Source: an uncultured Planctomycetia bacterium (GTDB lineage Bacteria; Omnitrophota; Gorgyraeia; Duberdicusellales; 4484-171). From it: a stretch of DNA of 24,000 bases. The position numbers and the translations under genes are program-made. Under the pieces are notes generated by a model. That model worked only from the letters and a program-made list of their open reading frames with translations, had not been told where the DNA came from and searched no databases. Of this stretch, positions 8,290 to 24,000 are shown one piece after another. How positions within the stretch are numbered: position 1 is the stretch's first letter; every line of letters starts with the position of its first letter. The DNA lies in the NCBI GenBank assembly GCA_964605645.1, contig CAZSDJ010000007.1, positions 1-24,000 on the forward strand, read 5' to 3'.

Positions 8290-9887
8290 TGAAATTACAA
8301 AGATTGTTTTTAATTTTAATTTTAATATTTACATTTAGTTTAACTATCTTTTCTTCATCTGTTTTTAGCCGAGATGATTATTATCAAGCATTAATGTTTG
8401 AAGAAGGGGCAGGAGAAGGCTTAGATATTGTGGTTGGCGATATTCAAGTTATTAAGGTAGAGGGAATAAAAAGGGTATCAATTCGTGATCCGAATATTGC
8501 TAATATTCAAAAAGCAGAAGCAGGTGAAATTATAATTGCCGGAAAATCGCAAGGATCAACGGTGCTTTCGGTATGGACGCAAAGCGGTAAACAACAATTT
8601 CAAATCAATGTAATTTCTGAAGATTTACCGGCATTGAAGAAAAAACTTGAAGAAATCATTCACCAAAAGTTAGGGATAACAGAGGTAACTTTGCGCGAAA
8701 ATAAATCGACTGGAAAAATTATGCTGTTGGGCAATATCACCCAAAACCAACGAAATAAAATTGAGCAAGTCATTGCTCCTTTTGCGAATAAGATTGAAGA
8801 TTTATTAATTACTAAAAAAGAACAGGAAATGGTAGAAATTGACGTTCAAATTTTAGAACTGAATAGAACTGATGCAAAAAATTTAGGCGTAGATTGGATG
8901 GATAGTATCGATATTACCGAAGCAGCTCCGGCAGCTTCAAGAAGTTGGAAATCGTTATGGCAGACAGGTACTTGGTCGCGGGGTAATTTAAATGCTACTT
9001 TAAATTTATTAATTAAAGAAGATAAAGGCAGAGTTTTATCAAGGCCAAAATTACTTTGTTTAAATGGTGAAGAAGCCGAGCTTTTGGTAGGTGGAGAAGT
9101 TCCCGTTTTAACAGAGGCGACAATCGGTGCAGGGAGCGGAACAAGTTCGGCTTCGATTGAATACAAAGAATACGGGATAAAACTTTTGATTAAACCTTTT
9201 ATTTTAGAAGAACAAATTTATCTCTCAATTACAGCCGAGGTGAGTGATGTAACTTCTGTAAACGCACTCACTGTTCAAGGCACGACTACACCTGCCTTTA
9301 CTGTAAGAAGAGCCCAAACGGTAGTTAATGTTGAATCAGGTGATACTGTATTTTTAGGAGGCCTTATCGACAGTGATGATTCAGACATTATTGAGAAATT
9401 GCCCGGATTTTCTCAAATTCCGATTTTAGGGGCACTTTTTCGTTCCAAGGATTTTACTAGTGAAAAGACTGAGCTTTTTATTACTTTGACTCCTAAAATT
9501 ATTAATTTAAGGAAAAAAGCAACAGCTTTGAAAACTGACAGTAAGTTTGAAGCTAAGCCGGAAGAGAGCCTTTTATACCAAAAATCTTCAATCCCTTTTG
9601 ATTTGCAAGGTTATGTACTGAGAGTTCAAAAAATAATATCAAATAATATAACTTATCCGCGAGAATTGTCAGGGACCGGTTGGAAAGGCAGGGTTGTTTT
9701 GTATTTAGAAGTTAATCAATATGGCGAGCTTTTAGATGTAAAGATAAAGAAGTCTTCCGGTTATAAAATATTTGACAAAGATGCTCTAGATTTGGTGAAA
9801 AAACTCAACTTCCATCCTTTTCCTTCTGAATTTGAAGAAGAAGAAATTAATATCGAAATTCCGATAGTTTATCGGGAATATAGGTAA
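8289..9887 (+). CDS. cpaC: CpaC/RcpA-type secretin with an added C-terminal TonB_C-like domain
   Basis: 532 aa with a signal peptide. Pilus-N domain (GDIQVIKVEGIKRVSIRDPNIANI…GSTVLSVW). Canonical secretin core (…VLSRPKLLCLNGEEAELLVGGEVPV…IEYKEYGIKLLIKP…EKLPGFSQIPILGALFRSK…ELFITLTPKII). The last ~90 aa (nt ~9606-9884: YPRELSGTGWKGRVVLYLEVNQYGELLDVKIKKSSGYKIFDKDALDLVKKLNFHPFP) read as a TonB C-terminal domain. Confidence 0.8.
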   Translation: MKLQRLFLILILIFTFSLTIFSSSVFSRDDYYQALMFEEGAGEGLDIVVGDIQVIKVEGIKRVSIRDPNIANIQKAEAGEIIIAGKSQGSTVLSVWTQSGKQQFQINVISEDLPALKKKLEEIIHQKLGITEVTLRENKSTGKIMLLGNITQNQRNKIEQVIAPFANKIEDLLITKKEQEMVEIDVQILELNRTDAKNLGVDWMDSIDITEAAPAASRSWKSLWQTGTWSRGNLNATLNLLIKEDKGRVLSRPKLLCLNGEEAELLVGGEVPVLTEATIGAGSGTSSASIEYKEYGIKLLIKPFILEEQIYLSITAEVSDVTSVNALTVQGTTTPAFTVRRAQTVVNVESGDTVFLGGLIDSDDSDIIEKLPGFSQIPILGALFRSKDFTSEKTELFITLTPKIINLRKKATALKTDSKFEAKPEESLLYQKSSIPFDLQGYVLRVQKIISNNITYPRELSGTGWKGRVVLYLEVNQYGELLDVKIKKSSGYKIFDKDALDLVKKLNFHPFPSEFEEEEINIEIPIVYREYR

Positions 9888-9966
9888 TTATATAATTAAT
9901 CTTGACGGCAGAAGTTAAAAACCTTTCCTTAAGGGAACTAATCTTAAAACAAAATAATTGTTAAAA

Positions 9967-12135
9967 ATGGATAATTCTAAATTAATTACTTTAATTAGTC
10001 CAAAAGGCGGGGTAGGCAAGACTATTATTTCCCTTAATTTGGCAACCGCTCTTTCTTTAAAGAAGAAAAAAACAATATTGCTTGATCTAGATTTACGGGC
10101 ACCGCAGGGAACTCATAAATTAATGAATATAAAGTGCAAATATTCACTTTATAATTTAGCCGGTTCAATTCAAAAATTTAAAAGTGAAGAGCGCCATCTG
10201 GAAAGTTATATCTCCCGCCATAGCAGCGGTTTATTTTTTGTGCCGGGGATTTTAAGAACAAAAGAAAAGTTTTCTTTAACTCCAGAGGTGATTCGAGATT
10301 TTCTTTCCCTTCTTTCCACAAAATTCGAATATGTAATAATTGATGGTGGTAGTGAGTTAACAGATCAACTAATAACCACTCTGGATAGTTCTAATTTAAT
10401 TGGACTAGTTTTATCACCGGACATTGTCTCAATCTATCAGAATGAGTGGATTATCGATACTTTACAGAGCTTAGGTTATCCGTTGAGCATGGTTAAGACT
10501 ATTCTAAATAGAGCCCAAAGCAAAGGTGGGGTTAGTGTGCAGGAGATAAAAGTATTATTAAATAGTGAAATAATTTCACAAATACCTTCGGAAGGGAAAG
10601 TGGTAGGCTATGCGGTGAACAAGGGCAATCCGGTTGTAATGGATAGTCCCAAAGCTAAAATTAGTGAGGCATTTAACGAATTAGCAGATAAGTTAATCAC
10701 TAAACCAAGTATTTTCATAGCCAGGAAAAATTTACAGGATATCAGGATAAAAACAGTTAAAGAAAAAGAAACTCAAGCAAGTATTTTAGAAAAAAGTTTA
10801 GGTGAAAAAAAAGCACCTCAGAAATTAGCGGAAGAAGAAGATGCTGTAATTCAGCTGAAAAAAAGAACTCAAAGTAGACTTCTTGATGAAATGGACCTAA
10901 AACGACTTCCCCTGGAAAAAATCTTATCGGATAAGCATCAGATGAAATCTTTACGAGATAAAGCAAAAAAGATAGTGACAAATATTATCGCACAAGAAGC
11001 TGGCGGGTTTATTTCATCAGCCGAGGTAAGAGCAAAAATAATCAAAGAAGTCCTAGATGAAGCCTTAGGCCTGGGGCCTTTAGAAGATTTGTTGAATGAC
11101 CCCGAAGTAACAGAAGTTATGGTCAATAATAAAGACCAGGTTTTTATTGAAGAAAAAGGAAAATTAAAACTTACTACCAAGAAATTTATATCTAACAATC
11201 AAGTAAGGATTATAATTGAAAGGGTCCTTGCTCCCCTGGGAAGAAGAATAGATGAATCAGTGCCCTATGTGGATGCTCGGCTGCAAGACGGTTCCCGGGT
11301 GAATGCGATAATTCCGCCGCTGTCGTTAAGTGGGCCAACTATAACTATTCGTAAATTTGCCCACGAAAGGTTTAATATGGAAGATTTAATCAACAGGTTT
11401 GGCAGTTTAACGTCAGATATGGGTAAATTTTTAAAAGCTTCAGTTGAATCGAGGAAAAATATACTGGTGTCCGGTGGAACCGGTTCAGGTAAAACTACCT
11501 TTTTAAATATTTTATCTTCATATTTACCGGGAGATGAGCGAATTGTGACTATCGAAGATTCCGCTGAACTAAAGTTGCACCAAAGGCATTGGATTCGACT
11601 TGAATCACGGCCGCCTAACATCGAAGGCAAAGGGGCGATAACAATTCGCGAATTATTTCGTAATACTTTAAGAATGAGGCCGGATCGGATTGTAGTGGGT
11701 GAATGCCGCGGCCAAGAGGTATTAGATATGCTCCAGGCGATGAATACCGGCCACGACGGCAGCATGACCACCATTCATGCTAACTCACCCCAAGATGTAT
11801 TAATTCGCCTCGATAGTATGATTTTAATGAGCGGTGTGGATTTGCCGTTGCGGGCAATAAGGGAAATGATCGCATCGGCTCTCGATTTAGTAGTACAAAC
11901 TGCGCGGCTTTCCGATGGATCGCGTAAAGTTACTAAGATTACTGAAATTGCCGGAATGACTGATGAAACTCATATCAATTTACAAGATATATTTACTTTT
12001 CGCCAAACCGGCATTGGCAAGAATCAAGAAGTTGTTGGTGATTTCGTGCCATTGGGCAATATTCCTACTTATTATGATGAAATGAAAGCAAGAGGTATAG
12101 AATTACCGCGGGATATGTTTATCCCCGAGGAATAA
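9967..12135 (+). CDS. fusion protein: TadZ/CpaE-like ParA/MinD-type ATPase (N-terminal) + TadA/CpaF type IV filament ATPase (C-terminal)
   Basis: The N-terminus has the deviant Walker A LISPKGGVGKTIISLNLA and the MinD/ParA layout (~250 aa). A K/E-rich linker follows. The CpaF core has Walker A VSGGTGSGKTTFLN, Asp box TIEDSAEL, Walker B RPDRIVVGECRG and His box GHDGSMTTIHA. The ORF track starts at TTG 9958; ATG 9967 is preferred. Confidence 0.85.
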   Translation: MDNSKLITLISPKGGVGKTIISLNLATALSLKKKKTILLDLDLRAPQGTHKLMNIKCKYSLYNLAGSIQKFKSEERHLESYISRHSSGLFFVPGILRTKEKFSLTPEVIRDFLSLLSTKFEYVIIDGGSELTDQLITTLDSSNLIGLVLSPDIVSIYQNEWIIDTLQSLGYPLSMVKTILNRAQSKGGVSVQEIKVLLNSEIISQIPSEGKVVGYAVNKGNPVVMDSPKAKISEAFNELADKLITKPSIFIARKNLQDIRIKTVKEKETQASILEKSLGEKKAPQKLAEEEDAVIQLKKRTQSRLLDEMDLKRLPLEKILSDKHQMKSLRDKAKKIVTNIIAQEAGGFISSAEVRAKIIKEVLDEALGLGPLEDLLNDPEVTEVMVNNKDQVFIEEKGKLKLTTKKFISNNQVRIIIERVLAPLGRRIDESVPYVDARLQDGSRVNAIIPPLSLSGPTITIRKFAHERFNMEDLINRFGSLTSDMGKFLKASVESRKNILVSGGTGSGKTTFLNILSSYLPGDERIVTIEDSAELKLHQRHWIRLESRPPNIEGKGAITIRELFRNTLRMRPDRIVVGECRGQEVLDMLQAMNTGHDGSMTTIHANSPQDVLIRLDSMILMSGVDLPLRAIREMIASALDLVVQTARLSDGSRKVTKITEIAGMTDETHINLQDIFTFRQTGIGKNQEVVGDFVPLGNIPTYYDEMKARGIELPRDMFIPEE

Positions 12136-12137
12136 TT

Positions 12138-13202
12138 ATGGCAGAAGGCGTAGAAAAATTAAATAAGTTATTGGCTGATCCAAAAACTACAGAAATCATG
12201 ATTAACGGCCCTCAGGCTGTTTTTTTAGAAAAAGACGGTAAAACTTACAAGGAAGATTCTGTAAGTTTTAGCGAAAAAGAGATAGAAGATATTATAAAAG
12301 ATTTTTTTATAAAAAATGGAAAGATGGTGTCCCACAATCATCCTTATGCGGATGTTTGCCTCGAGGATGGATCACGCCTGAATATAATTTTAGCCCCGAT
12401 GTCACGCTGCGGCAGTTCAATTACAATCAGAAAGTTTTCTCAAGAACTAAAAAGTCTAGATGATTTATTGCAACGGGATGCAATGAGTAAAAATATGGCT
12501 GAATTTTTAAAAAGCTGTATCCAGGCAAAACTCAATATATTATTTTCCGGGGCAACCGGAACCGGTAAAACCACTACTTTAGAGATGCTTTCTTATTCAA
12601 TCCCCAAAGATGAAAGAATTGTAACTATTGAAGATACTGCAGAACTTCAGCTGCATCAGCCAAATTTAGTCCCACTGGAAACTCGTGATCCGGATGAAGA
12701 AGGTAGAGGGGGGGTAACTTTAAGAGATTTAATAAAAAATGCTCTCCGCATGCGCCCGGATCGAATAATTTTAGGTGAAGTACGCGGGGAGGAAGCTTTA
12801 GATATGGTACAAGCGATGGCAACCGGCCATACCGGGACTTTAGCGGTAGTTCACGGCAGCAGTCCTAAAGATATATTAGGCCGAATTGAGGCGATGGTTT
12901 TATCTTCCGGGATAAAACTGCCTTTAGAGGAAATTAGAAAAATGTTGGCGGCAACTTTAGATATTGTTGTGCAGCACCATCGCTTTGTCGATGGTTCCCG
13001 CCGGATTACTCATATTACAGAAGTAAGGGATATTCAGCAAGGAGAAATCGTTTTACAGGATTTATTTGTTTTTCGACGCGAAGGCAAAACTTCGGAAGGA
13101 AAAATTAAAGGAAGTTTCAAAACGGTGATGAAGAGATATCCTAAATTTTTCACCGATATGCGCCGTATGAACTTAATCGACGATAAAATCTTTTCCGATT
13201 AA
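12138..13202 (+). CDS. cpaF: second, stand-alone TadA/CpaF-type type IV filament ATPase
   Basis: 354 aa, starting 2 nt after the upstream stop. Walker A FSGATGTGKTTTLE, TIEDTAEL, RPDRIILGEVRGEEA and GHTGTLAVVHG are all intact. The compact N-terminal domain is similar to the corresponding region of the fusion protein. Confidence 0.85.
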   Translation: MAEGVEKLNKLLADPKTTEIMINGPQAVFLEKDGKTYKEDSVSFSEKEIEDIIKDFFIKNGKMVSHNHPYADVCLEDGSRLNIILAPMSRCGSSITIRKFSQELKSLDDLLQRDAMSKNMAEFLKSCIQAKLNILFSGATGTGKTTTLEMLSYSIPKDERIVTIEDTAELQLHQPNLVPLETRDPDEEGRGGVTLRDLIKNALRMRPDRIILGEVRGEEALDMVQAMATGHTGTLAVVHGSSPKDILGRIEAMVLSSGIKLPLEEIRKMLAATLDIVVQHHRFVDGSRRITHITEVRDIQQGEIVLQDLFVFRREGKTSEGKIKGSFKTVMKRYPKFFTDMRRMNLIDDKIFSD

Positions 13203-13562: not shown

Positions 13563-15509
13563 ATGTTAGAAAAAGTTAATAAGATAATTGATTTTTTACG
13601 CTGGCCGGCATTTTTTCTTCTTTTTTCCTACCTGATTCTTTTTGCTTCTCTTAACTTACATGGTTTAGATTATTTGTTTCACATTAAAAGTGGTGAACAT
13701 ATCTTAGAAAGTGGCCATGTTCTCAGAGAAGATCCTTTTTCATTTACTCAAGCAGGCAAGAAATGGGATGATCATGAATGGCTTTATCAGGTTTTAATTT
13801 ATAAAATTTATCAGCAATTTGGGATTGAAGGGTTAGTTTTATTTAAAACAATAGTCTTAATTACAGCTTTTTTTCTTCTAGCTCTTATTGCTTTAAAGAT
13901 TGATTGGATTTTTGCTTTTTTTCTGATTTTTTTTAGCTTAAAAGTATCCTTTTTGCGTTTTACGCTGCGGCCGGACCATTTTAGTTTTCTCTTTTTTATT
14001 GTTTTTCTGATACCCTTTATCTTTAAAAAAAAGAAATTACTTTATTTACTTCCTTTTGTTCAGCTGATTTGGGTAAATACGCACGGTTTTTTCTTTCTCG
14101 GGCCGGCGGTATTAATTATTTATCTGCTCAGCGCTAAAATAAGTAAGCAACAATTTTCTGATGATTTTTACAAAAGAGTAAAAATTATAACCTTTTTTAC
14201 CTTTTTTGCCTGTTTGCTAAATCCTTATCCAATTGGTACTATCACCTATCCTTTAAAAATTATAAAAGATATATTAACCGGCCAACAAGGTGTTTTTTAT
14301 CAGAGCATACAAGAATTGCGAAAACCGCTAGCAGCTTTTAGTTGGAGTTCTTTATACATAAAATATCTGATAGCTACCAGTTTTTTTGTTTTTATTTTTA
14401 AAAAATTCAATCTTTTTTATGCTGTTCTTTGGCTGGTTATGGTGATTTTTGCCCTAAATTCTACCCGTAATTTCTACTTTTATATCCCGGCAGCAGTAGT
14501 ATTGGCCGTAAATCGATTTCCTTATTTGGAAAAATCTTTTTTAAAAAAAAGTATTACTCCTAAAAGGTTTATTTTTTTAAAAATTGTTTTATTAGTTTTT
14601 ATTGTAAAGATTTGTTTAGCAATTTCAGGTGAAATTATTGATTTACCGAAGACCAAACAGTCATACCTTGATTTTTCTGTAAAGAATTCACTCGCTACTA
14701 GCCAAAAGTCTCTTGGCCGGGAAAAAATTCAATATCCGGAAAAATTAATTGATTTTATAAAAAATAATAAATTGCCTGGGAGGATGTATAACAATTTTAA
14801 TCTTGGCTCAAGCTTAATATTTAATCTCTATCCGGAGAGAAAAGTATTTATTGACGGCAGGGCAGAATTTTACGGCCAAGATTTTTTTAATTTTTATAAT
14901 GAAATTTCATCCGGGGATGAGGAAAAAATAAAGGAAGCCGTCAGCAGATATAAGCTAGAAGGATTTGTGATTAGTTATGTTAGAAACGATCCTCCTGATT
15001 TAATTTTTAGCCTTTACCAGCAAGGCTATAAGTGTATTTATTTCGGGATGGATGGAATAATTTTTATAAAGAATTCAGCCTTAAAAAATTATACCAATTT
15101 AGAGAAAAAAATAGTTGATTTTGATAATTATAAACCAGAAAAAATTAATTTTATTAAAAATATAAAACTCTATACCCCCTACGCCGAAGGTTTGTACAAG
15201 AAAGGTTATATATTGTATAGATTAGGCTTTTATAATCAGAGTAGAATATATATGGACAATTTATTAAATATTTATCCGGGCCATTACAAGGCATTATATA
15301 TTCTGGCGAAAATAAATTATAAGAATAAAAAATATGAACAAGCTTATATTTTTGCGCGTCAGGCGCTTAGTTTTAAATCGGATTTTAAAAAAGCTAAGAA
15401 ATTTATTGCAAAAATTTATCTAGATTTAGGAAAAGAAGAAGAGGCCCAGGAAATTTTAGATAAATTAAATTTAAGTTTAGAAAAATTTAAAAATGAAAAG
15501 GTAAGGTAA
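13563..15509 (+). CDS. large polytopic membrane protein with C-terminal TPR repeats; possible GT-C-fold glycosyltransferase (tentative)
   Basis: 648 aa with about 10 or more hydrophobic helices in the first ~370 aa. The first loop carries an acidic motif (REDPFSFTQAGKKWDDHEWLYQ). The C-terminal ~120 aa read as TPR (…YKKGYILYRLGFYNQS…YKALYILAKINYKNKKYEQAYIFARQAL…). The function is a guess. Confidence 0.35.
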   Translation: MLEKVNKIIDFLRWPAFFLLFSYLILFASLNLHGLDYLFHIKSGEHILESGHVLREDPFSFTQAGKKWDDHEWLYQVLIYKIYQQFGIEGLVLFKTIVLITAFFLLALIALKIDWIFAFFLIFFSLKVSFLRFTLRPDHFSFLFFIVFLIPFIFKKKKLLYLLPFVQLIWVNTHGFFFLGPAVLIIYLLSAKISKQQFSDDFYKRVKIITFFTFFACLLNPYPIGTITYPLKIIKDILTGQQGVFYQSIQELRKPLAAFSWSSLYIKYLIATSFFVFIFKKFNLFYAVLWLVMVIFALNSTRNFYFYIPAAVVLAVNRFPYLEKSFLKKSITPKRFIFLKIVLLVFIVKICLAISGEIIDLPKTKQSYLDFSVKNSLATSQKSLGREKIQYPEKLIDFIKNNKLPGRMYNNFNLGSSLIFNLYPERKVFIDGRAEFYGQDFFNFYNEISSGDEEKIKEAVSRYKLEGFVISYVRNDPPDLIFSLYQQGYKCIYFGMDGIIFIKNSALKNYTNLEKKIVDFDNYKPEKINFIKNIKLYTPYAEGLYKKGYILYRLGFYNQSRIYMDNLLNIYPGHYKALYILAKINYKNKKYEQAYIFARQALSFKSDFKKAKKFIAKIYLDLGKEEEAQEILDKLNLSLEKFKNEKVR

Positions 15510-15510
15510 A

Positions 15511-16440
15511 TTATTTTTTATCAAGAGTGATATTCTTTGCTATATTTTTGATTTCTGCATAAATCTTTGCTTGATCGTTTCCCAAAGTCCAACCGATAAA
15601 TTTTAAGTCAAAATCATTAATTCTAAGGTAAAGTATAAGGTAATCTTGTCTATTGCCCTTTGTGATATCTGTGTATTGAATTTGGAAACCAGTATTTTTA
15701 TTTATAAAAAAAGAAGATTTTTTTACTTTTATATTTCTTTTAAGATTTAAATCATTAGATAAAGTATTTTTAAGAGTTTTTAAACTAAAACTTTTTTTAA
15801 ATAAATTTAATTCTTCGGGGATGATTAAGCAAAATGAATTACCATTTTTTCTGATTAAAGCAATTTCAGCTTCTGTTTTTAAGAATTTTTCCTTTATTTG
15901 AGAAAAATCATCCCTTCTTACTATTTTCCAGTTAGCGGGGGTATTGAGTTTATAATTGAAGGCTGGGCTTATAAATTCTTTTTGTCCGTATTTTTTAAGC
16001 TTTATTAAAAGCTGTTGTTTGTAGCTGATATAATAGGCGGTCAGATAGCCGTTAGTTAAAAGCATAATTACCGTTAAAATAGCTAAAATAGCGGCTCTTT
16101 TTAGCTTATCTAGAGCCAGGAGCCCTAAGCAAAGTAAAGTGACGATTCTAGCCCAAATTAAGCCATATTGGGCATCAACTAGGTAAAATACCAGGAGTGT
16201 GCTAATTAACCCCAAGAATAATCTGAAGAAAAAGGTTCTTTTTATTTTTGGCTTGTTTTGGAAGAATGCATAAGCTAAGTAGAAGTCAAAAAAAGCAAAG
16301 GCAAGTTTTAAATAGCCAAGCAGGTTTATGGGTAAATACATAACCTGCCAAAAGAAAAGAAAGAATTCAGCTAAACCTGTAACGAGAAGGACAAGCGCTA
16401 ATGTTTCGTAGTTTGATTTTAATTTAGATTTTTGGGCCAT
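15511..16440 (-). CDS. hypothetical membrane protein (N-terminal multi-TM region + C-terminal soluble domain)
   Basis: 309-aa ORF with 4-5 hydrophobic helices in the first ~150 aa. No recognisable motif. It is convergent with the previous gene, with only 1 nt between the stop codons. Confidence 0.6.
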   Translation of the reverse strand: MAQKSKLKSNYETLALVLLVTGLAEFFLFFWQVMYLPINLLGYLKLAFAFFDFYLAYAFFQNKPKIKRTFFFRLFLGLISTLLVFYLVDAQYGLIWARIVTLLCLGLLALDKLKRAAILAILTVIMLLTNGYLTAYYISYKQQLLIKLKKYGQKEFISPAFNYKLNTPANWKIVRRDDFSQIKEKFLKTEAEIALIRKNGNSFCLIIPEELNLFKKSFSLKTLKNTLSNDLNLKRNIKVKKSSFFINKNTGFQIQYTDITKGNRQDYLILYLRINDFDLKFIGWTLGNDQAKIYAEIKNIAKNITLDKK

Positions 16441-16482: not shown

Positions 16483-17277
16483 TTAGTATTTTTCTAATAA
16501 TGAGGGAATAATAATTTTTGCGTCTTTTACTAAGTTTGCTTCGGATTCATCAAAAAGAAAAGGCTGCAATGAGTCAGCCTGTTTTTTTAGTTCTTTTTTG
16601 GAAAAGCCTTCAATTCTTTTTGTTATTGTTTGAAAAGGCTTTGTCTTGATGCCTAAAGTTTTTAACCTGTTTTTATCAATCGGATATTTATTTGAAAGCA
16701 TAAAAATTATATCATAAATATGCCTGCCTTTATTTTTTTTTCTGAGGGCATCGATTTTGTCAGCAAATAAAATGCTCTTTCTAGTGCAGAGGCAAGGATA
16801 AAACTGGCCAAAACCGGCAGCTACTTCTGTTTCTGTATTTATTCTTTGTTTTAACAAAACAGATTCTATTTTAATAATGATTCCTTCTTTTTTGGAATAT
16901 TTTGATTTTGCTTTATATGTTTGTTCTATTTGAGGGAAAATTAAATTTGCTACGTAAAGATTGCCCCAATGAGAAAACTCTAATTTAGGTTTTAGGCCAA
17001 TTCTTTTTAATTCATTTTTTACTTTTTCGAGAAGCTTTTCAAATTTAAGTTTGGTTATTTTGTTACTGTTAAAATCTAAATCTTCAGAAAATCTTTTTAA
17101 GTTATGAATCAATCTAAGATAAGTTCCTCCGGTAAAATAAAGTTTTTTCCCTTCCGGAATCTTATAAATTTCCTTTAGAATAAGGATTTGTAAATATTCT
17201 CGTAAAATTCCCCGGATTTTTGTAGGCGGCATCTCCCTTGATTTAGCCTGTTCTAACAAAGTTTCATAAGTCAGCAT
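16483..17277 (-). CDS. abiEii: AbiEii/AbiGii-family nucleotidyltransferase toxin (type IV TA / abortive infection)
   Basis: 264 aa. The motif YFTGGTYLRLIHNLKRFSEDLDFN is the DUF1814/AbiEii nucleotidyltransferase signature. The gene overlaps the upstream partner by 14 nt. Confidence 0.8.
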   Translation of the reverse strand: MLTYETLLEQAKSREMPPTKIRGILREYLQILILKEIYKIPEGKKLYFTGGTYLRLIHNLKRFSEDLDFNSNKITKLKFEKLLEKVKNELKRIGLKPKLEFSHWGNLYVANLIFPQIEQTYKAKSKYSKKEGIIIKIESVLLKQRINTETEVAAGFGQFYPCLCTRKSILFADKIDALRKKNKGRHIYDIIFMLSNKYPIDKNRLKTLGIKTKPFQTITKRIEGFSKKELKKQADSLQPFLFDESEANLVKDAKIIIPSLLEKY

Positions 17278-17872
17278 AAAATTCTCCCAGATTAAGATTA
17301 TAAAGTCTAGCGTATTTATTCAATTTTTTCTTATTAAGAGATTTAAGTTTTTTTTCATCAAACCGTTGGTCTTTTAAATTTATTTTTTTATTACGGTAAT
17401 TATTAAAATAGAGATAATCAATAAAGGCTTTTTCCGGCTCGGCAATAAGAATATTAAAATCGCCTTGTTTTTCTAAATAGTATCCCGCGAAAGCTTTTGG
17501 TTGGACTGTTTTATAAATAAAAAGGCCATGTTTATTTTTAAATTTGCGCGTAGGTTTTGTAGAGATAGACGTTACCGCCATAGATACTTCCGGAATAATG
17601 CTGTAATCCGATAAGGCAGTTTCTAGTGAGATATAAGAAGGATTATAAAGTTTGTTAGCAATATAAAAATCAGGGATCATAAAATCAGTTGGGAAGCTTA
17701 ACTCATATAAACCTCGCTTCAGGTGATAAATCCATCCTTTTTCACACCACCGAAACAGCATTTTTTTTAGATTTTCTTTTTTTTCGCTAGGTGAGAAGGA
17801 GAGAAGATCATCATAGGAAAAAATGAAGTATTTATGTTTTTCTAAAGTTTTGTAAAGTTCTTGAAATCTCAT
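17264..17872 (-). CDS. abiEi: AbiEi-family antitoxin / wHTH regulator
   Basis: 202 aa. The N-terminal wHTH-like pattern (…IFSYDDLLSF…LKKMLFRWCEKGWIYHLKRGLYEL) is typical of AbiEi. The gene lies immediately upstream of abiEii. Confidence 0.7.
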   Translation of the reverse strand: MRFQELYKTLEKHKYFIFSYDDLLSFSPSEKKENLKKMLFRWCEKGWIYHLKRGLYELSFPTDFMIPDFYIANKLYNPSYISLETALSDYSIIPEVSMAVTSISTKPTRKFKNKHGLFIYKTVQPKAFAGYYLEKQGDFNILIAEPEKAFIDYLYFNNYRNKKINLKDQRFDEKKLKSLNKKKLNKYARLYNLNLGEFYADL

Positions 17873-17979
17873 TTCACTAAGTACTCTTTTTTGTCCACTT
17901 ACTGAAACAAGTGTAACCTAATTTTCAAGGTTTGTCAAGGGTTGGAAGGTGATAGCTTGCGGTTATCAGAAGAAAGTAA

Positions 17980-18261
17980 TTAGCCTTCCTTGCGCAAATG
18001 GACTTGTTGATAAACCTCTTTTCTGTGGCCTATTTTAAAAATAATAATATCTTTTTTATCTATTTTATAAATAACCCGGTAATCACCGACGCGAAGTTTT
18101 CGATATTGCTGTAAGCCTCTTTTTAGGGGTTGCCCGTATTTTGTCGGTTCTGCCAATAATCTTTCTTCAATCGCTTTGCGAATTCTTTTTTGGAGATTTT
18201 TCGGTATTTTGGGCAGATCCTTTCTTTTAATATCGGGATGATAAAGTAAATTATAAGCCAT
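17980..18261 (-). CDS. RelE/ParE-family type II toxin
   Basis: 93 aa. …LPKIPKNLQKRIRKAIEERLLAEPTKYGQPLKRGLQQYRKLRVGDYRVIYKIDKKDIIIFKIGHRKEVY is a typical RelE/StbE pattern. Confidence 0.85.
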   Translation of the reverse strand: MAYNLLYHPDIKRKDLPKIPKNLQKRIRKAIEERLLAEPTKYGQPLKRGLQQYRKLRVGDYRVIYKIDKKDIIIFKIGHRKEVYQQVHLRKEG

Positions 18262-18489
18262 TTATTCCCAAGTTTCTTGATGCGATAGAGATTTTTTAGG
18301 AGAAAAGGTTTTTTCTCTTTCCTGGGCTGATTTTTGCCAATAGCTGTCTGCATGGAGTTCTAACGCCTCTTTGATCAAATCCCTTGCTGCCAAAGAGAGA
18401 GAAACTCCTTCTCGATGTGCCAATTTATCTAAAGCTTTGTATAATCTTGGTTCCAACACAACATTTAAACGCGGGTTTTTTGTCGGCAT
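18262..18489 (-). CDS. ribbon-helix-helix (CopG-like) antitoxin
   Basis: The preferred start is MPTKNPRLNVVLEPRLYKALDKLAHREGVSLSLAARDLIKEALE. On the - strand, GGAGGTG lies 7 nt upstream of this ATG. The stop abuts the toxin start (TAAATG). The longer ORF-track start (18537) lacks an RBS. Confidence 0.8.
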   Translation of the reverse strand: MPTKNPRLNVVLEPRLYKALDKLAHREGVSLSLAARDLIKEALELHADSYWQKSAQEREKTFSPKKSLSHQETWE

Positions 18490-18558
18490 AATTTTCACCT
18501 CCATATCAAATGTATCACATATGATGAACTTTGTCAAGAGCGGCTGGGGAGCATATTT

Positions 18559-19074
18559 TTATTTGGGGTAATATTTATCATTTTTCCAATTGCCAGGATT
18601 ATCGAGGATGTAATGGCGGATGCGGTTTAAATTGAATTCAGTGCGGATTGTGTGTTCATAATAATTGCGTTGCCAAATCGGTTGTTTTGGCATATTCCGT
18701 AATTGGTTGATCTGTTTTGTTGTTGTTGATTTAAACAATTTAACAATTGTCGGTATTGAATTTGGCGTGGAGCAACCAAATTTTTCAACATGATTATGTA
18801 CGGGCACATTGCAATGTGCCCGTACGATATTGATTATTCCATGGATATGATTTGGCATTATAATAAATTCATCCAATTCAATATTTTTACGGATTTTTTC
18901 CGTTTTACACCATTCTTTTTGAATAATTCTCCCATATTTATTTAAAATCATTTTTTCATTATATATATCGCCAAACAGGTATTTACGATTATTTACACAT
19001 ATTGTCACATAATACATACCTGGTTGGCTGTAATTGTAATTTTTTAATCGTATTGATTTGCGGTTTTTTAACAT
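18559..19074 (-). CDS. REP-associated tyrosine transposase (RAYT; IS200/IS605-like Y1 HUH transposase, COG1943-type)
   Basis: Typical N-terminus MLKNRKSIRLKNYNYSQPGMYYVTICV, HUH motif PNHIHGII and catalytic-Tyr block IWQRNYYEHTIRTE…IRHYILDNPGNW. The ORF-track start at 19098 lies inside the flanking palindrome, so the second Met (19074) is preferred. Confidence 0.85.
   Translation of the reverse strand: MLKNRKSIRLKNYNYSQPGMYYVTICVNNRKYLFGDIYNEKMILNKYGRIIQKEWCKTEKIRKNIELDEFIIMPNHIHGIINIVRAHCNVPVHNHVEKFGCSTPNSIPTIVKLFKSTTTKQINQLRNMPKQPIWQRNYYEHTIRTEFNLNRIRHYILDNPGNWKNDKYYPK
18798..18825. repeat. 28-bp perfect palindrome GTACGGGCACATTGCAATGTGCCCGTAC, a REP copy inside the RAYT coding sequence
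   Basis: Read directly. It encodes …VRAHCNVPV… between the HUH motif and the Tyr helix of the RAYT. Confidence 0.8.
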
Positions 19075-19086
19075 GGGTTTTATTTG

Positions 19087-19114
19087 GTAGGGGCACATTG
19101 CAATGTGCCCCTAC
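19087..19114. repeat. 28-bp perfect palindrome GTAGGGGCACATTGCAATGTGCCCCTAC (REP)
   Basis: Read directly. It lies in the divergent intergenic region between the RAYT and the 478-aa ORF. Confidence 0.85.
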
Positions 19115-19202: not shown

Positions 19203-20639
19203 ATGAAGAAAAAGATTGATGCCCGCCTGAAGAAGCTGGTGCTCAACCAACACAGAAATAATCCTAATCTAGGGGTGAGGAAGCTTTCTGACTTGTTAGA
19301 GAAGAAATACGGCGTCTTATTATCGAAAAGCAGTGTTCACTCTGTATTACAAGCTAAAGGAGCTAAGCTTAAAAAGGGGCGAAAAGAAGCTAAATTAGCT
19401 TATGAAAAAAACAGTATTCCGGAAGCAGGATTATTACTATTGCGCTGTATCGATAGTCAGATCGGATTCTTTGAGTATGTTAGCGATGAACTCAATATCT
19501 ACACCCCAAAGTTAAAAAAAGAATTGTTGAAAAAATTTATAATTTTAGCTAGCCTTGCTTTTTTATCAGCTGAAAAACCAAATACAGCAGCTCGTAAAAA
19601 GAGTTATTTACGGTTAGCGGGGTTGTATAGATTTCCCGTTAAAAAGTTCAATTATTTTAAAAAACAGATAGTGCGTTATCAGCCCACCCTGGAACTGAAA
19701 TTACTACATAAAAATTTAACGATTATTTCAGGAATAAAAATTATATTTATAGATAGGTCTTATATTTTTTCTGATGCAAAAATGACAACTCTTTGGGATT
19801 CTGTGCCCAAGATAGAATATTTCTTTTCTTCTCTCCAAGATGCAAAAAATCGCGTTATGAAAATGGCCAAAGAAGGTTTATTTATTTTTGGTTATACTAA
19901 AAGCTGGGGTCATCTATCCACCTTGGTTTTTAAATTAATTAAAGGCCAGAAGCAAAGGATCGCAGCGGTACAATTTTTAGATACAAAAGCGAAGGTGGTT
20001 GAGAAAATTGAGATGAAGAAAAAAACAGATTTTATTTTAGGTTATTATCCGAAAGGAGTTTCGAAAGGGTTAAATTTTCCTAAAAAACAAAAGCGATACA
20101 AGTGCATTCATCTTACTCCTTTAGGCACTTATTATCTTCTTGATTTATCTATAGAATTTATACAAAACATTGATAATGAAAGAATTATATCAAATAACGT
20201 CCTAATAAGAGATAAGAATTATGGCCTGCCTAATTGGGGTTTAATTACTTCTTATCAGAAAATTACCAAAACTCTCTTAAAGGATATAATTAACAGTTAC
20301 TTGTATTTATGGCCGGATAGAGAAGAAAGTTTTTTTGCAGGGACAAAAGCGATTGAACAATCTTTTTTCAACAAAGACGCGCAAAAAAAAGAAATAATGG
20401 GGATATTACCGCATAAATTAAGTTTTTCTCAATTAACGGATTTTAGCCGGGTTGGGCAATTGTTATCGATTTTGTGTAAAGAATTGGTGGAAGGTTTCGA
20501 ACCAAAACGGAAAAGGGGATTTATAGAAAACGGGAATGATTATCTGTTGGTAGTTTTAGATAAAATTGCTGCTAAAACTAAAAAAAGATTAAATAAACAA
20601 GCTTTTTTTGTGGATGGGAAAAGGGTGTTTTTTCGGTGA
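19203..20639 (+). CDS. hypothetical protein with an N-terminal transposase/integrase-style HTH; possibly a very divergent transposase
   Basis: 478 aa. The N-terminus …LVLNQHRNNPNLGVRKLSDLLEKKYGVLLSKSSVHSVLQAKGAKLKKGRK resembles the HTH that precedes catalytic domains in IS481/IS3-type transposases. …AGLLLLRCIDSQIGF…, …IIFIDRSY… and …YLWPDREESFFAGTK… are only weakly DDE-like. No firm catalytic assignment. Confidence 0.35.
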   Translation: MKKKIDARLKKLVLNQHRNNPNLGVRKLSDLLEKKYGVLLSKSSVHSVLQAKGAKLKKGRKEAKLAYEKNSIPEAGLLLLRCIDSQIGFFEYVSDELNIYTPKLKKELLKKFIILASLAFLSAEKPNTAARKKSYLRLAGLYRFPVKKFNYFKKQIVRYQPTLELKLLHKNLTIISGIKIIFIDRSYIFSDAKMTTLWDSVPKIEYFFSSLQDAKNRVMKMAKEGLFIFGYTKSWGHLSTLVFKLIKGQKQRIAAVQFLDTKAKVVEKIEMKKKTDFILGYYPKGVSKGLNFPKKQKRYKCIHLTPLGTYYLLDLSIEFIQNIDNERIISNNVLIRDKNYGLPNWGLITSYQKITKTLLKDIINSYLYLWPDREESFFAGTKAIEQSFFNKDAQKKEIMGILPHKLSFSQLTDFSRVGQLLSILCKELVEGFEPKRKRGFIENGNDYLLVVLDKIAAKTKKRLNKQAFFVDGKRVFFR

Positions 20640-20835: not shown

Positions 20836-20857
20836 TTTTGTAATTATGGAGACAAAA

Positions 20858-21154
20858 ATGAAAAAAGCACAGTCAATAGTCGAATACGCAATAGCATTTG
20901 TGGTGGTGGTCAGCGGCATAATTGCTATCGGTTTTATTGCTGATGCAAGAGGAGTTTTCCAAAATCATTTTGATGAAGTAATGCAGGAAATGAGCATGAA
21001 CAATCAACCTGTTGCTGTTGTTTTGAATTCGGATAATAGTTCTGAAAAAGATGATTCTAAAACAGCTGCTTCTGAAGAGAACAATTCCGAAGAAGATGAT
21101 TCTACTGGTGTTAAAGCTGGAGGAATAAGTGCTTTTGGTGTTTGGTGGAAGTAG
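20858..21154 (+). CDS. pilin-like protein P1 (class III signal, Flp/TadE-like N-terminus, acidic S/D/E-rich tail)
   Basis: GGAG lies 6 nt upstream of ATG 20858. Begins MKKA|QSIVEYAIAFVVVVSGIIAIGF…. The ORF-track start at 20783 would add a 25-aa leader and sits inside the leader hairpin. Confidence 0.65.
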   Translation: MKKAQSIVEYAIAFVVVVSGIIAIGFIADARGVFQNHFDEVMQEMSMNNQPVAVVLNSDNSSEKDDSKTAASEENNSEEDDSTGVKAGGISAFGVWWK

Positions 21155-21178
21155 TTTTGGTTTTTAATTTTAAAAATA

Positions 21179-21367
21179 ATGAAACGAAACAAAAGTAAAG
21201 TTATGATTAGAAAATTACAAAAAAGTAAAGCACAGTCGATTTTAGAGTATTCATTGTTGATAATGGTGATAGCTGCAGCCTTGATGGCGATGCAGAAGTA
21301 TATACGCCGAGCGATGAACGCACGATTAAAACAAGTACAGGAAGAATTAGATGAATCTTCACGATAA
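21179..21367 (+). CDS. pilin-like protein P2 (short, Flp-sized)
   Basis: …KLQKSKA|QSILEYSLLIMVIAAALMAMQKYIRRAMNARLKQ…. 62 aa, or 54 aa if it starts at ATG 21203. No strong SD at either start. Confidence 0.6.
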   Translation: MKRNKSKVMIRKLQKSKAQSILEYSLLIMVIAAALMAMQKYIRRAMNARLKQVQEELDESSR

Positions 21368-21383
21368 CTTAAGGAGGTGGGAG

Positions 21384-21575
21384 ATGTTAAGGAAGGGGCA
21401 AAGTATTTTGGAATACATGATTATTTTAGCGGTAATAATTGCTGCGGTGGTTGTTGGCGCTAAATATATGCAGAAGAGCACCGACCAAGGACTGCAAGAT
21501 GCAACTGGTGCTATGGAAAGTGCAACCGGTAAGTTCAAGAGCCAAGTTGGCGGCGGTCTCGGTGACGGAAATTAA
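21384..21575 (+). CDS. pilin-like protein P3 (short, Flp-sized)
   Basis: AGGAGGTG (21372-21379) precedes ATG 21384. Begins MLRKG|QSILEYMIILAVIIAAVVVGAKYMQK…. The ORF-track start at 21351 overlaps P2 and lacks an RBS. Confidence 0.75.
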   Translation: MLRKGQSILEYMIILAVIIAAVVVGAKYMQKSTDQGLQDATGAMESATGKFKSQVGGGLGDGN

Positions 21576-21598
21576 AAATAATTTTTAGGAGGTGGCAG

Positions 21599-21985
21599 AT
21601 GTTAATAGTTTTAAGAAAAAAAATAAGAGCCCAGTCAACGGCAGAGTATGCGATCTTTTTTGGCATCATTATTGCTGTGGCAATCGGGATGCAGAAGTAT
21701 CTAAAAAGAGGCATGCAGGGAAAGGTGAAGTCAGTTACCGATGCGGTAGGGCAATCGGCGCAAGGCCAAACTATTGCCGGAACTGGTGTAACCCTACAAG
21801 ATGAAGGCCAATATGTGCCCTATTATCTTGTTGATCAGGATTCAGGAACAACTAGTAGGAGCCAAGAGGTTAGCAAAGAAATGGCTACAACTGACGGCGG
21901 CGCTTTCACCAGAACGGAAACTCAAGATGCGGAAGCTGATTCTACGCAAACAGAAACATATTCTATTGGCGATCAAGGCTATTAA
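21599..21985 (+). CDS. pilin-like protein P4
   Basis: TAGGAGGTGG lies upstream. Begins MLIVLRKKIRA|QSTAEYAIFFGIIIAVAIGMQKYLKRGMQGKVKS…. T/D/E/Q-rich tail. Confidence 0.75.
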   Translation: MLIVLRKKIRAQSTAEYAIFFGIIIAVAIGMQKYLKRGMQGKVKSVTDAVGQSAQGQTIAGTGVTLQDEGQYVPYYLVDQDSGTTSRSQEVSKEMATTDGGAFTRTETQDAEADSTQTETYSIGDQGY

Positions 21986-22021
21986 TCGTTACGGGATAAA
22001 AAGATGAGGAGGAGGTTTTAG

Positions 22022-22330
22022 ATGTTAATGAAAATGCAAAAAGGACAAAGTACCCTAGAATACGCTGCGTTGTTTGCGGTAGTAATCGGGGCGATCATTG
22101 CCGGCCAAGTTTATTTTAAACGCGGTGTGCAAGGCAAACTGAAATCATCGGCAGATCAAATGGGTGAGCAATATTCGTTTGGGGCAACGGGGACTATTAC
22201 TCAAGAGATATCTTCATCGTCTGAAGAAGTTACAGGTGGCGGAACAACTACAACTACTTCCCAACAAACTCAAAGCCAGGAAAGTGATATTAACATTGGC
22301 GGATTTGATGAGGAGTATTGGGGAGAGTAA
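22022..22330 (+). CDS. pilin-like protein P5
   Basis: GAGGAGGAGG lies upstream. Begins MLMKMQKG|QSTLEYAALFAVVIGAIIAGQVYFKRGVQGKLKS…. The tail contains SSSSEEVTGGGTTTTTSQQTQSQES. Confidence 0.75.
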   Translation: MLMKMQKGQSTLEYAALFAVVIGAIIAGQVYFKRGVQGKLKSSADQMGEQYSFGATGTITQEISSSSEEVTGGGTTTTTSQQTQSQESDINIGGFDEEYWGE

Positions 22331-22365
22331 TAATTAAGAAAAGAGCAGAAAAGGAGTGATTATTT

Positions 22366-22728
22366 GTGCGTAAAACTCAGAGTTTATTGAATTATGCGAT
22401 ATTGATGGTGGTGGTTGGCTTAGCTCTTGTTGGGATGAATAAATACTTTAAAAGAGGTGTTCAAGGCAAGGTCGCCGGGCTTTCCGATGCGATGATTGCA
22501 CCTCGCGCAGATCATCTAGCTTATACCGATCAAGACATGGTGCAAAATTCGCAAACAATTCAAGATATGAATGTAAGCATAAATTTAGGAGCAGAAGGGG
22601 CTCAATCCAAACGATCATCTACAACAGCAACTAGTAATACCCATAGAGTTACAGAGGATGAAGATTATGTGGAAGGGGATAGCTCAGGAAATTTAAAGGG
22701 GATAGCTCAGGAGATTTATAAGAAGTAG
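22366..22728 (+). CDS. pilin-like protein P6 (Asn instead of Glu at predicted +5)
   Basis: GTG start with AAGGAG 9 nt upstream. Begins MRKT|QSLLNYAILMVVVGLALVGMNKYFKRGVQGKVAG…. Confidence 0.65.
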   Translation: MRKTQSLLNYAILMVVVGLALVGMNKYFKRGVQGKVAGLSDAMIAPRADHLAYTDQDMVQNSQTIQDMNVSINLGAEGAQSKRSSTTATSNTHRVTEDEDYVEGDSSGNLKGIAQEIYKK

Positions 22729-22758
22729 TTTAAATAAAGTAATTTATTAAAGAAAAAT

Positions 22759-23646
22759 ATGATTCAAAAAATTAAAAAAGCACAAGCATTAACAGAAATG
22801 GCAATATTTGGAACGTTGATATTGCTTTGTTTTTATTACTTATTAACTTATATCCAGAGAATGAATGAAACTCAATATGTGACTCAAGAAGCTTTTCGGA
22901 ATGCACTGGAAAGAGCATCTGACTCAAGTGTAGGCTCGGTAAGCTATGTAAATTTTTCTAATAAACGCCAAGCCAATCTTTATTCTCCGGTTGTAGGAGA
23001 AAGAAGCCAAATAAGCGGCTCTGGACAAATATATTGGGGAACTCCTCCTATTACCTATACTGACGAAGGTGCAGTAGAAACTGGTGAGCTTGCAGCCCAC
23101 GCTTACTATAAATTTAATAAAGATGAGCGTGAATTAAGCGGTATTTTGGCTGGAGAAGAAAGCCCAGCTGTTGAGCTAAGTAGCGGGTCACTTAATGTTT
23201 TGGTAAATAGATTAGGTTCAAGTCTTCAAGGTACAATTAACGCTTACGCTGGCGAAGATGAAACAGTTTTAGGCGATACAAGTATTACCGGCGTTAGCAG
23301 TTCTGTAGGCTCATCCCACCTGGAAGATGTGGTAAATACTACATTACAGCAAAATAATGAAAATAATGAAGATGCAAGTGAGAATGAGATAGAGATAGAT
23401 TCTTATGTAAAGGTAAATGCTTCTACACAAATAAATTATAATAATTCGAATATTACGACTAACCAATCAGGGAAGGTAGAAGATAAAGTGATTTATACTA
23501 TAAATGATAAAGACGGGAATCCGCTTTATAGTATTGATCAAGGCCTTGGCCAAGATGGTTATTATAGTCATACGGATGTGGATAAAGAAGTTGATAATGT
23601 AATGTTACCGGGCGATAGCCCGAGACAATGGATAGCAGTGAAATGA
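22759..23646 (+). CDS. large pilin-like protein P7 (TadE/TadG-like minor pilin or tip/adhesin candidate)
   Basis: 295 aa. Begins MIQKIKKA|QALTEMAIFGTLILLCFYYLL…, followed by a ~260-aa soluble S/G/N/E-rich region. Confidence 0.6.
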   Translation: MIQKIKKAQALTEMAIFGTLILLCFYYLLTYIQRMNETQYVTQEAFRNALERASDSSVGSVSYVNFSNKRQANLYSPVVGERSQISGSGQIYWGTPPITYTDEGAVETGELAAHAYYKFNKDERELSGILAGEESPAVELSSGSLNVLVNRLGSSLQGTINAYAGEDETVLGDTSITGVSSSVGSSHLEDVVNTTLQQNNENNEDASENEIEIDSYVKVNASTQINYNNSNITTNQSGKVEDKVIYTINDKDGNPLYSIDQGLGQDGYYSHTDVDKEVDNVMLPGDSPRQWIAVK

Positions 23647-23876
23647 AATTAATAAAAAAAACAGAAGTTACTTTAGAATTAGCGGTTACTTTTGTGGTTT
23701 TTTGCCTCTTTATTTTAGGCATAATCAATATTTGGGTTTGGGGGCACGCCCAAATTGCAGGAAGAAGCAATAGTTATGAACAGAGTCGAAGAGAAGCTGG
23801 CAATCAAGATCCTGGCCGTCCGGCAGGTTATAATCCTAGTAGTTTAACCGAAGAGGAAGTGATTTTAAGCAATTAA
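23643..23876 (+). CDS. TadE-like pseudopilin P8
   Basis: The ATG at 23643 overlaps the P7 stop (ATGA). Begins MKLIKKT|EVTLELAVTFVVFCLFILGIINIW…. The ORF-track start at 23628 is 5 codons upstream. Confidence 0.6.
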   Translation: MKLIKKTEVTLELAVTFVVFCLFILGIINIWVWGHAQIAGRSNSYEQSRREAGNQDPGRPAGYNPSSLTEEEVILSN

Positions 23877-23884
23877 GTATATCA

Positions 23885-24000
23885 ATGATTTTGTATAAAA
23901 GAAAAAAAGTTCAATCAGCAATAGAATATGCAGCTTTGATTGCTGTAGTAGCGGGTGCATTATTAGCATTTAGTGTTTATTTTAAAAGAGCTACTCAAGG
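23885..24000 (+). CDS. pilin-like protein P9 (5' part only, truncated by the window end)
   Basis: Hand-translated: MILYKRKKV|QSAIEYAALIAVVAGALLAFSVYFKRATQG…. It has the same signal and post-helix YFKR-x-QG motif as P4-P6. It is absent from the ORF track because it runs off the window. Confidence 0.6.
   Translation, partial: MILYKRKKVQSAIEYAALIAVVAGALLAFSVYFKRATQ

Follow-up and report, generated by a model that had tools for sequence, protein, structure and literature searches.

Nine tandem genes of an Omnitrophota bacterium probably encode Flp-type pilins of a bacterial Tad pilus with a variant Gln-Ser processing site

The first 24,000 nucleotides of contig CAZSDJ010000007.1 (assembly GCA_964605645.1, forward strand), from an uncultured bacterium assigned to the Omnitrophota in GTDB, were analysed and are referred to below as the window. 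Its 3' end (20846-24000, + strand) is occupied by nine consecutive small genes, recognised in the open reading frame (ORF) listing and by reading of the window end, and their products, P1 to P9, resemble prepilins. The N-termini comprise a short Lys/Arg-rich leader, a site of the form [KR]-[G/A/T/V]↓Q-S-x-x-E-Y, in which the arrow marks the assigned processing position, and about 20 hydrophobic residues. Genes of a Tad pilus machinery lie upstream in the window.

The first gene of the array (P1, 20846-21154) encodes a Flp-like prepilin with the N-terminus METKMKKA↓QSIVEY and a mature length of 94 aa, the tail being acidic and Ser-rich; start codons at 20783, 20846 and 20858 are all possible. 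P2 (21179-21367; SKA↓QSILEY; mature 44 aa) and P3 (21384-21575, with an alternative start at 21351; MLRKG↓QSILEY; mature 58 aa) are short Flp-like prepilins that correspond to P0051 and P0058, respectively, among the database relatives. P3 is a candidate major pilin, and its type (KG↓QSILEYVIVLTAIVA, about 55 aa) is the most frequent among these relatives. P4 (21599-21985; IRA↓QSTAEY; mature 117 aa) and P5 (22022-22330, with a database start at 22034; QKG↓QSTLEY; mature 94 aa; P0001 among the relatives) are longer prepilins. The AlphaFold model of P5 contains a helix of 44 residues (3-46) followed by a beta-hairpin (51-88), with a predicted local distance difference test (pLDDT) score of 74.8. 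The prepilin-like P6 (22366-22728; RKT↓QSLLNY) begins at a GTG codon and has Asn in place of Glu at +5. The post-helix motif Y-x-K-R-G-x-Q-G-K is found in P4 (KYLKRGMQGKVKS), P5 (YFKRGVQGKLKS) and P6 (YFKRGVQGKV), is diverged in P9 (YFKRATQ) and is lacking in P1.

P7 (22759-23646; KKA↓QALTEM) is a large minor pilin or pseudopilin of 295 aa that matched no Pfam family, although proteins with 26-47% identity to it are present in most related loci. P8 (23628-23876; KKT↓EVTLEL; 82 aa) is a putative TadE-like pseudopilin, with a weak match to Pfam TadE (PF07811; E=0.0048, 17.4 bits against a cutoff of 22.9); its orthologues read KKT↓QVALEL and KKT↓QVTLEL, and its place between the large minor pilin and TadB/TadC is conserved. 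The last prepilin gene (P9, 23885-24000; KKV↓QSAIEY) is cut by the window end; its orthologues have called lengths of 59 aa in the syntenic locus L002 and 56 aa in L005.

The processing sites of the nine proteins were assigned by placing Glu at position +5. Counted in this way from the ORFs, Gln occupies +1 in eight of the nine proteins and Ser occupies +2 in seven, while residue -1 is Ala in four, Gly in two (P3 and P5), Thr in two and Val in one, in agreement with an earlier note on this sequence. Lys or Arg is present at -2 in all nine, Glu at +5 in eight (the exception being P6) and Tyr at +6 in seven, with Glu and Tyr occurring together in six. The site [KR][G/A]↓Q is fitted exactly by six proteins (P1-P5 and P7), while P6 and P9 carry Lys at -2 and Gln at +1 with Thr or Val at -1. 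At the DNA level, the pattern CARWSNNNNNNNGARTAY, which codes for QSxxEY, occurs six times in the window, always inside the pilin array and in a single frame orientation; the expectation is 0.33 +/- 0.57, and none of 100 dinucleotide shuffles reached six.

The processing motif is kept in the orthologous arrays of three syntenic loci, with residue -1 drifting among small residues. Across the orthologues it is Val, Thr (L002) or Ala (L005) in P9, and Ala, Ala (RKA↓QSVVEY, L002) or Ser (KKS↓QSVVEY, L005) in P1. In P2 it is Ala, Cys and Cys (KKC↓QSILEY and KKC↓QSVLEY), and in P6 Thr or Ala, the latter in an L005 orthologue (RKA↓QSLVNY, 10357-10683) that retains Asn at +5.

A large family of pilins has the motif K-G/A↓Q-S-x-x-E-Y as its consensus. 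An exhaustive profile search of 1.84 billion representatives returned 6461 cluster representatives at E<=0.001, and the relatives whose source is named all belong to Candidatus Omnitrophica/Omnitrophota. Among 161 database relatives, Gln is found at +1 in 155, Ser at +2 in 145, Lys or Arg at -2 in 142, Glu at +5 in 156 and Tyr at +6 in 155; residue -1 is Gly in 117 and Ala in 32, followed by Ser, Cys and Thr. The top 148 matches of the profile search gave similar values (Gln +1 in 143, Ser +2 in 125, Lys/Arg -2 in 125, Gly 98 and Ala 44 at -1). A genome scan with the peptide KGQSILEY and the family alignment A3, using one genome per species, yielded 50 loci, most of which carry an Omnitrophota label. 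The 568 pilin-like N-termini collected from them form a noisy set, anchored solely on the +5/+6 residues and hydrophobicity, in which Gln +1 was counted 414 times and Ser +2 321 times, with Gly (233), Ala (185), Ser (18), Thr (11), Val (10) and Cys (3) at -1. Each locus encodes 8-14 paralogues. Many members also carry the motif Y-x-K-R-G-x-Q-G-[KR]-L-[KR] after the helix, which is specific to this lineage. Members are annotated by the Joint Genome Institute (JGI) in part as "UPF0333 family" and in part as "Flp pilus assembly pilin Flp". The same synteny was seen in loci labelled Planctomycetales, Deltaproteobacteria and Dehalococcoidia. One locus labelled "Methanosarcinales archaeon" (L022, JAIWAR010000014.1) shares its KG↓QS array, its TadB/TadC pair and its T2SSE ATPase with L016, which is labelled Omnitrophota. 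Hallmark genes of archaea are absent from L022, which probably represents an epibiont contig that was mis-binned.

The machinery genes of the window are all on the + strand. A periplasmic CpaB/RcpC component (7504-8289; Pfam RcpC and SAF) matches the equivalog model TIGR03177 of NCBIfam with 147.6 bits against a cutoff of 71, and is followed by an outer-membrane secretin of the RcpA/CpaC type (8289-9887; Pfam Secretin, T2SS-T3SS_pil_N and TonB_C). The C-terminal TonB_C domain of the secretin (PF03544, residues 453-529) is a fusion that is kept in the syntenic loci L002 and L003. Next is a protein of 725 aa (9958-12135) in which a TadZ-like ParA/MinD domain (Pfam CbiA/ParA/AAA_31) is fused to a CpaF/TadA ATPase (T2SSE), with the TadA family TIGR03819 as its best NCBIfam match. 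Directly after it, a second, short ATPase of the CpaF/TadA type (12138-13202; T2SSE, TIGR03819; 354 aa) is encoded; it has counterparts with 64-91% identity in L005, L012 and L020, while only a 29-aa remnant was called in L002. Exact look-ups of P7, the second ATPase and P0001 returned no match, and that of P4 only a 1.6 kb Logan contig. The genes beyond base 24000 were read from syntenic loci and not from the window's own contig: two T2SSF genes (TadB and TadC) follow the array in L002, L003 and L005, and in L005 a gene resembling Tad (PF13400) comes after TadB/TadC. The gene order peptidyl-prolyl isomerase, CpaB/RcpC, secretin, TadZ::CpaF and pilin array was found in about 30 of the 50 scanned loci. 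The locus is a complete diderm bacterial Tad locus. The DNA of the window is rich in A+T (G+C content about 25-42% per kb, mostly 31-40%), and neither G+C content nor skew changes from the Tad machinery genes to the pilin genes. Tad complexes in Omnitrophota have already been described and tied to a predatory or parasitic lifestyle, in a study that does not discuss the prepilin signal (PMC10066038).

Several other genes separate the machinery from the pilins. A 648-aa protein (13563-15509, + strand) with about seven or more transmembrane segments and C-terminal TPR repeats matched no glycosyltransferase family in Pfam. Just upstream of the pilin array of L022 (1157-6638) are three glycosyltransferases of the PMT_2 type and one GT2 enzyme. 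Together with this 648-aa protein and the Ser/Thr-rich tails of the pilins, they hint at O-glycosylation of the pilins. A mobile or defence-type block on the - strand (16483-19098), the composition of which varies among the syntenic loci, encodes an AbiEii toxin and its upstream partner, a ParE toxin accompanied by a small ORF resembling an antitoxin, and an IS200-like Y1 transposase. The array is directly preceded by a gene for a 478-aa protein (19203-20639, + strand) with weak N-terminal matches to HTH_33 and HTH_32 (E about 1e-3); it occupies the same position in many related loci, with 22-63% identity, and may be a regulator. At the other end of the window, a CsgG-like lipoprotein with a FlgT_C domain (61-972, + strand) has no relation to the Tad locus.

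The nine genes very probably encode the pilins of a Tad pilus of the bacterial kind (type IVc, Flp-type) in this Omnitrophota bacterium, for which we infer cleavage, assembly and function. By definition, Flp pilins have Glu at +5 and Tyr at +6, and a hydrophobic stretch of about 20 residues comes straight after their short leader (PMC3244431); the array and its family conform to this definition (E+5 in 156 of 161 and Y+6 in 155 of 161 relatives). The register QxSxE is absent from the array, in which Ser stands at +2 and +3 is Ile, Thr or Leu. In profile-profile comparison (hhalign) with 36 PF04964-positive pilins, the Omnitrophota alignments A3 and A1 gave probabilities of 96.2% (E=2.5e-9) and 97.7% (E=1.5e-12), respectively, with the G↓Q sites in register. 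The profile of these Gln-type Flp pilins in turn recovered the solved Tad pilins of Caulobacter (8U1K and 8U2B) at 2e-12. The relative P0080 has a precomputed PF04964 domain, and the alignment of P3 with mature Caulobacter Flp runs from end to end, although it is not significant. In the published TadB/TadC trees, Omnitrophota stand with other bacteria, grouping with Bdellovibrionales, and RcpA groups with those of myxobacteria and Lysobacter (PMC10066038).

A generic Flp-like sequence carrying GQSLVEY was used as a query against a collection of 5.8 billion proteins and matched 482 clusters at E<=0.001. All 120 of the matches listed carry PF04964; Gln is at +1 in 105 of them, Q-S in 77 and the exact [KR]G↓QS in 44, counts which, given the bias of the query to Q-S, show the existence and scale of this type and not the frequency of +1 Gln across PF04964. 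Those Q-S pilins with a named source ("Flp family type IVb pilin") come from metagenome-assembled genomes (MAGs) of Planctomycetes/Planctomycetota and Ca. Brocadiae, and Flp with Gln +1 was also found in a Firmicutes MAG, Effusibacillus consociatus and Gaiellaceae. The earlier note described bacterial Flp prepilins as having no conserved +1 Gln, which is wrong, Gln +1 being common in Gram-positive Flp as well (Nair et al., PMC3875500); and it stated that its proposal would be refuted if many ordinary bacterial Flp pilins showed Q(+1)S(+2), as the 77 Q-S pilins do. On the sequences compared, K-G↓Q-S-x-x-E-Y is a widespread variant of bacterial Flp and not a trait of archaeal type peculiar to this locus. 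The motif does not mark an archaeal or intermediate system, because many ordinary bacterial Flp pilins carry it, and the [KR][G/A]↓Q site does not discriminate, since bacterial Flp_Fap pilins have the same site.

A number of results weigh against the assignment to a bacterial Tad pilus. None of the nine window proteins matches Pfam Flp_Fap (PF04964), even at E<=1, and Gly at -1, expected for G↓xxxxEY, is present in only two of them (P3 and P5). Weak matches point instead to archaeal families: that of P3 to Class_IIIsignal (PF04021; 14.8 bits against a cutoff of 23.7, E=0.028) is the best in the window, where no protein reaches the gathering score, and P3, P4 and P5 have sub-threshold matches to TIGR04205 (E=0.001 for P3; 19 bits against 65). 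Among 150 family members, 39 match Class_IIIsignal (weakly, best 2.3e-4) versus 30 that match Flp_Fap (best 1e-6). Searches of the PDB with the Omnitrophota profiles gave only insignificant matches to geopilin, Caulobacter Flp and archaeal flagellin (E about 0.4-3.6). Finally, no candidate for an A24 peptidase was found within about 10 kb of the arrays in about 50 loci by a screen for the G-x-G-D/E-x-K motif in proteins with multiple transmembrane segments. Of the same 150 family members, 27 match DUF4244. The sequence of P5 alone found nothing in the PDB, and its model had no Foldseek match there below E=2. A plasmid collection gave no tblastn match to P3 or to a short consensus, probably owing to low-complexity filtering. 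At the level of single sequences, the Omnitrophota family falls between Flp and archaeal class III pilins.

The processing site and its peptidase are the unusual parts of the system. Lys or Arg at -2 is near-obligatory in the Omnitrophota family, while -1 is relaxed, with Ala nearly as frequent as Gly and, rarely, Ser, Thr, Cys or Val. A choice of Gly, Ala or Ser at -1 has been quoted as the rule for all prepilins (PMC4371748); Thr, Val and Cys fall outside it, and the earlier note had remarked that proteins with Thr or Val at -1 (P6, P8 and P9) would be unusual substrates of a TadV-type peptidase. The ORFs with multiple transmembrane segments near the arrays of the roughly 50 loci all resemble TadB/TadC pairs. 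In the window, a 309-aa protein with four transmembrane segments (15511-16440, - strand) was considered as the peptidase and rejected, having neither a G-x-G-D motif nor an A24 match. P0185 and P0257, both encoding Flp of the Q-S type, stand as orphans between adh and dapB; neither Tad genes nor a peptidase gene were found in their neighbourhood, and they give no information on the cognate peptidase. In Omnitrophota, the cognate prepilin peptidase is presumably a loner gene or missing. The published model of Tad systems permits a loner tadV (Denise et al.), and in Bdellovibrio TadV is entirely absent and the Flp genes are trimmed; the lack of a locus-encoded peptidase is notable but not unprecedented.

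According to the mechanism proposed here, the prepilins, with their basic leader, small -1 residue, Q-S-x-x-E-Y motif and hydrophobic alpha-helix of about 20 residues, would insert into the inner membrane. An aspartyl prepilin peptidase of the A24 type, presumably encoded elsewhere in the genome, would then cut the leader before Gln. The subunits would polymerise on the TadB/TadC platform, encoded just past the window end in the syntenic loci, with the TadZ::CpaF ATPase powering the process, and the fibre would exit through CpaB/RcpC and the secretin. The short P2 and P3 (mature 44-58 aa), similar in size to Flp major subunits, are the likely major subunits; P1, P4, P5 and P9 may be alternative or minor pilins, and P7 and the TadE-like P8 putative pseudopilins. 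Minor pilins without Glu5 are known in other type IV systems. By analogy, P6, with Asn at +5, could be an initiating or tip subunit that may start the fibre without the need for Glu5. The pilus is likely to serve in attachment to host or prey cells.

The earlier note proposed, instead, that the locus could be a deep-branching or intermediate form of Tad. In this view, the array would have retained a signal of the archaeal Epd type, and its pilins would be processed by an EppA-like peptidase needing [KR] at -2 and Gln at +1. An Epd-like origin of Tad was indeed proposed by Denise et al., and the resemblance of the array to EppA substrates (RA↓QI, KG↓QV, KG↓QL and KG↓QI) is real: [KR][GA]↓Q...E is the same as in the substrates of Methanococcus maripaludis EppA, and a charged -2 residue has been reported as critical in archaea only (PMC4371748), while EppA needs Gln +1 (PMC4390842). 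The near-obligatory Lys/Arg -2 (142 of 161 and 125 of 148 relatives), the weak Class_IIIsignal and TIGR04205 matches, the "UPF0333 family" label of some members and the absence of a TadV-type gene near the locus would fit as well. However, the resemblance does not discriminate, with KG↓QS also found in PF04964-positive Flp of Planctomycetota and Gln +1 in other phyla. Moreover, Ser at +2 rather than +3 and the presence of Tyr +6 are bacterial Flp features absent from Epd pilins; the secretin, CpaB, TadZ and TadB/TadC are all present; and the published TadB/TadC and RcpA trees group Omnitrophota with bacteria (PMC10066038). Nothing therefore marks the locus as deep-branching or intermediate, and this proposal is considered improbable. 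A related reading, in which the Omnitrophota pilins are matured by a peptidase of archaeal-like specificity (EppA-like or another non-TadV enzyme, encoded off the locus) and Gln +1 is an ancestral Tad trait, is just as improbable. Were it true, the full EppA-type triad of Lys/Arg -2, small -1 and Gln +1 would have been kept, the exposed Gln might cyclise to pyroglutamate, and the phylum would be a living witness of the transfer from archaeal Epd to bacterial Tad, Gln +1 having been lost in Proteobacteria.

The basic-hydrophobic N-termini could also be signal anchors, some or all of the nine products being uncleaved, N-terminally anchored membrane or secreted proteins; within this explanation, those paralogues that have Thr, Val or Cys at -1, outside the Gly/Ala/Ser rule (PMC4371748), may escape processing. 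The lack of a peptidase near the locus, the example of Bdellovibrio with its trimmed Flp genes and no TadV, and the failure of Foldseek to return a pilin-like match agree with it. Nevertheless, in thousands of relatives Q+1, E+5 and Y+6 show strict conservation and a constant spacing to the hydrophobic helix, as is characteristic of type IV pilins that are processed and polymerise; the pilin genes are always found beside Tad machinery; and the -1 residue of the odd paralogues becomes Ala in orthologues. An uncleaved anchor is accordingly very unlikely. A chimera, in which pilin genes recently gained from archaea, for example from methanogen hosts, were plugged into a bacterial Tad machine, would be in line with the Methanosarcinales label of L022 and with the life of Omnitrophota such as Velamenicoccus on methanogens (PMC10066038). 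Yet L022 has the arrangement of L016 and no archaeal hallmark genes, so that mis-binning is the simpler explanation; G+C content and skew do not change between machinery and array; the pilin family is phylum-wide; and its profile link to bacterial Flp is strong. Such a recent gain is extremely unlikely, and the array is best regarded as the pilin set of a bacterial Tad pilus.

The textbook description "G↓xxxxEY, no conserved +1" reflects the proteobacterial pilins that were studied first, and Gln +1, often with Ser +2 and Lys -2, cannot by itself label a locus as archaeal-like. Pfam Flp_Fap mostly misses the Omnitrophota family, and annotation pipelines disagree on its members, calling them "Flp", "hypothetical" or "UPF0333", the last being an archaeal family; a dedicated family model would improve the detection of Tad systems in host-dependent Omnitrophota. 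The relaxed -1 residue together with the absence of a locus-encoded peptidase poses a concrete question for prepilin peptidase specificity.

Among the known systems, the Epd pilins of M. maripaludis are like those of Omnitrophota in having [KR][GA] at -2/-1, Gln at +1 and Glu at +5 (PMC4371748), as well as several small paralogues (mature 54-63 aa) beside larger ones (PMC3875500, PMC4371748). The profiles of Epd/PF04021 and Omnitrophota pilins share a weak reciprocal similarity. In the Pfam description, Epd/PF04021 pilins have Ser at +3 (QxSxE). They differ from the Omnitrophota pilins in the hydrophobic residue (Ile, Val or Leu) at +2 (PMC4371748), and the M. maripaludis pilins are without Tyr +6 and the Flp motif (PMC3875500). 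Epd systems also lack the context of secretin, CpaB and TadZ::CpaF. A nine-transmembrane EppA is encoded near the Epd genes (PMC4858521), whereas no EppA-like ORF was found near any of the approximately 50 Omnitrophota loci in the motif and transmembrane screen.

Caulobacter PilA (8U1K/8U2B) and Aggregatibacter Flp1 share with the Omnitrophota pilins Glu +5, Tyr +6 and a small mature subunit, and proteobacterial Tad loci resemble this one in encoding CpaB/RcpC, a secretin, TadZ, CpaF/TadA, TadB/TadC and TadE-like pseudopilins. However, the mature N-terminus of these canonical proteobacterial pilins reads T-A-I-E-Y from position 2, and Lys/Arg -2 is not required. Proteobacterial Flp start with Ala or Val at +1, not with Gln-Ser. 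In Caulobacter and Aggregatibacter, TadZ and CpaF are separate proteins; in the locus studied here they are fused, with a second ATPase after them. Proteobacterial tad loci also usually encode a dedicated TadV/CpaA (PMC3244431). The Gram-positive Flp of Firmicutes and Actinobacteria have Gln +1 like the Omnitrophota pilins but mostly as Q-G or Q-A rather than Q-S, and with Gly at -1; their systems are without a secretin because the organisms are monoderm.

Planctomycetota and Omnitrophota are usually placed close together, in the Planctomycetota-Verrucomicrobiota-Chlamydiota (PVC) group. The Flp of Planctomycetota and Ca. Brocadiae (PF04964; P0211, P0242, P0266 and P0275) have the same motif in the same register, KG↓QSLVEY compared with KG↓QSILEY or QSTLEY in Omnitrophota, together with the short basic leader, the hydrophobic helix of about 20 residues and a profile-profile probability of 96-98%. 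These proteins differ in that Gly is always found at -1 (114 of 114 parsed), Glu is as frequent as Lys at -2, and they pass Pfam Flp_Fap. They are about 55 aa long and end in the Flp tail LGxxI...F; P0185 and P0257, the two whose surroundings were inspected, are single orphan genes. The Omnitrophota pilins, in contrast, are encoded in arrays of 8-14 and often have the YxKRGxQG[KR] motif and a longer tail. They form a new subfamily, poorly captured by present models, within a pilin type and a locus type that are both known.

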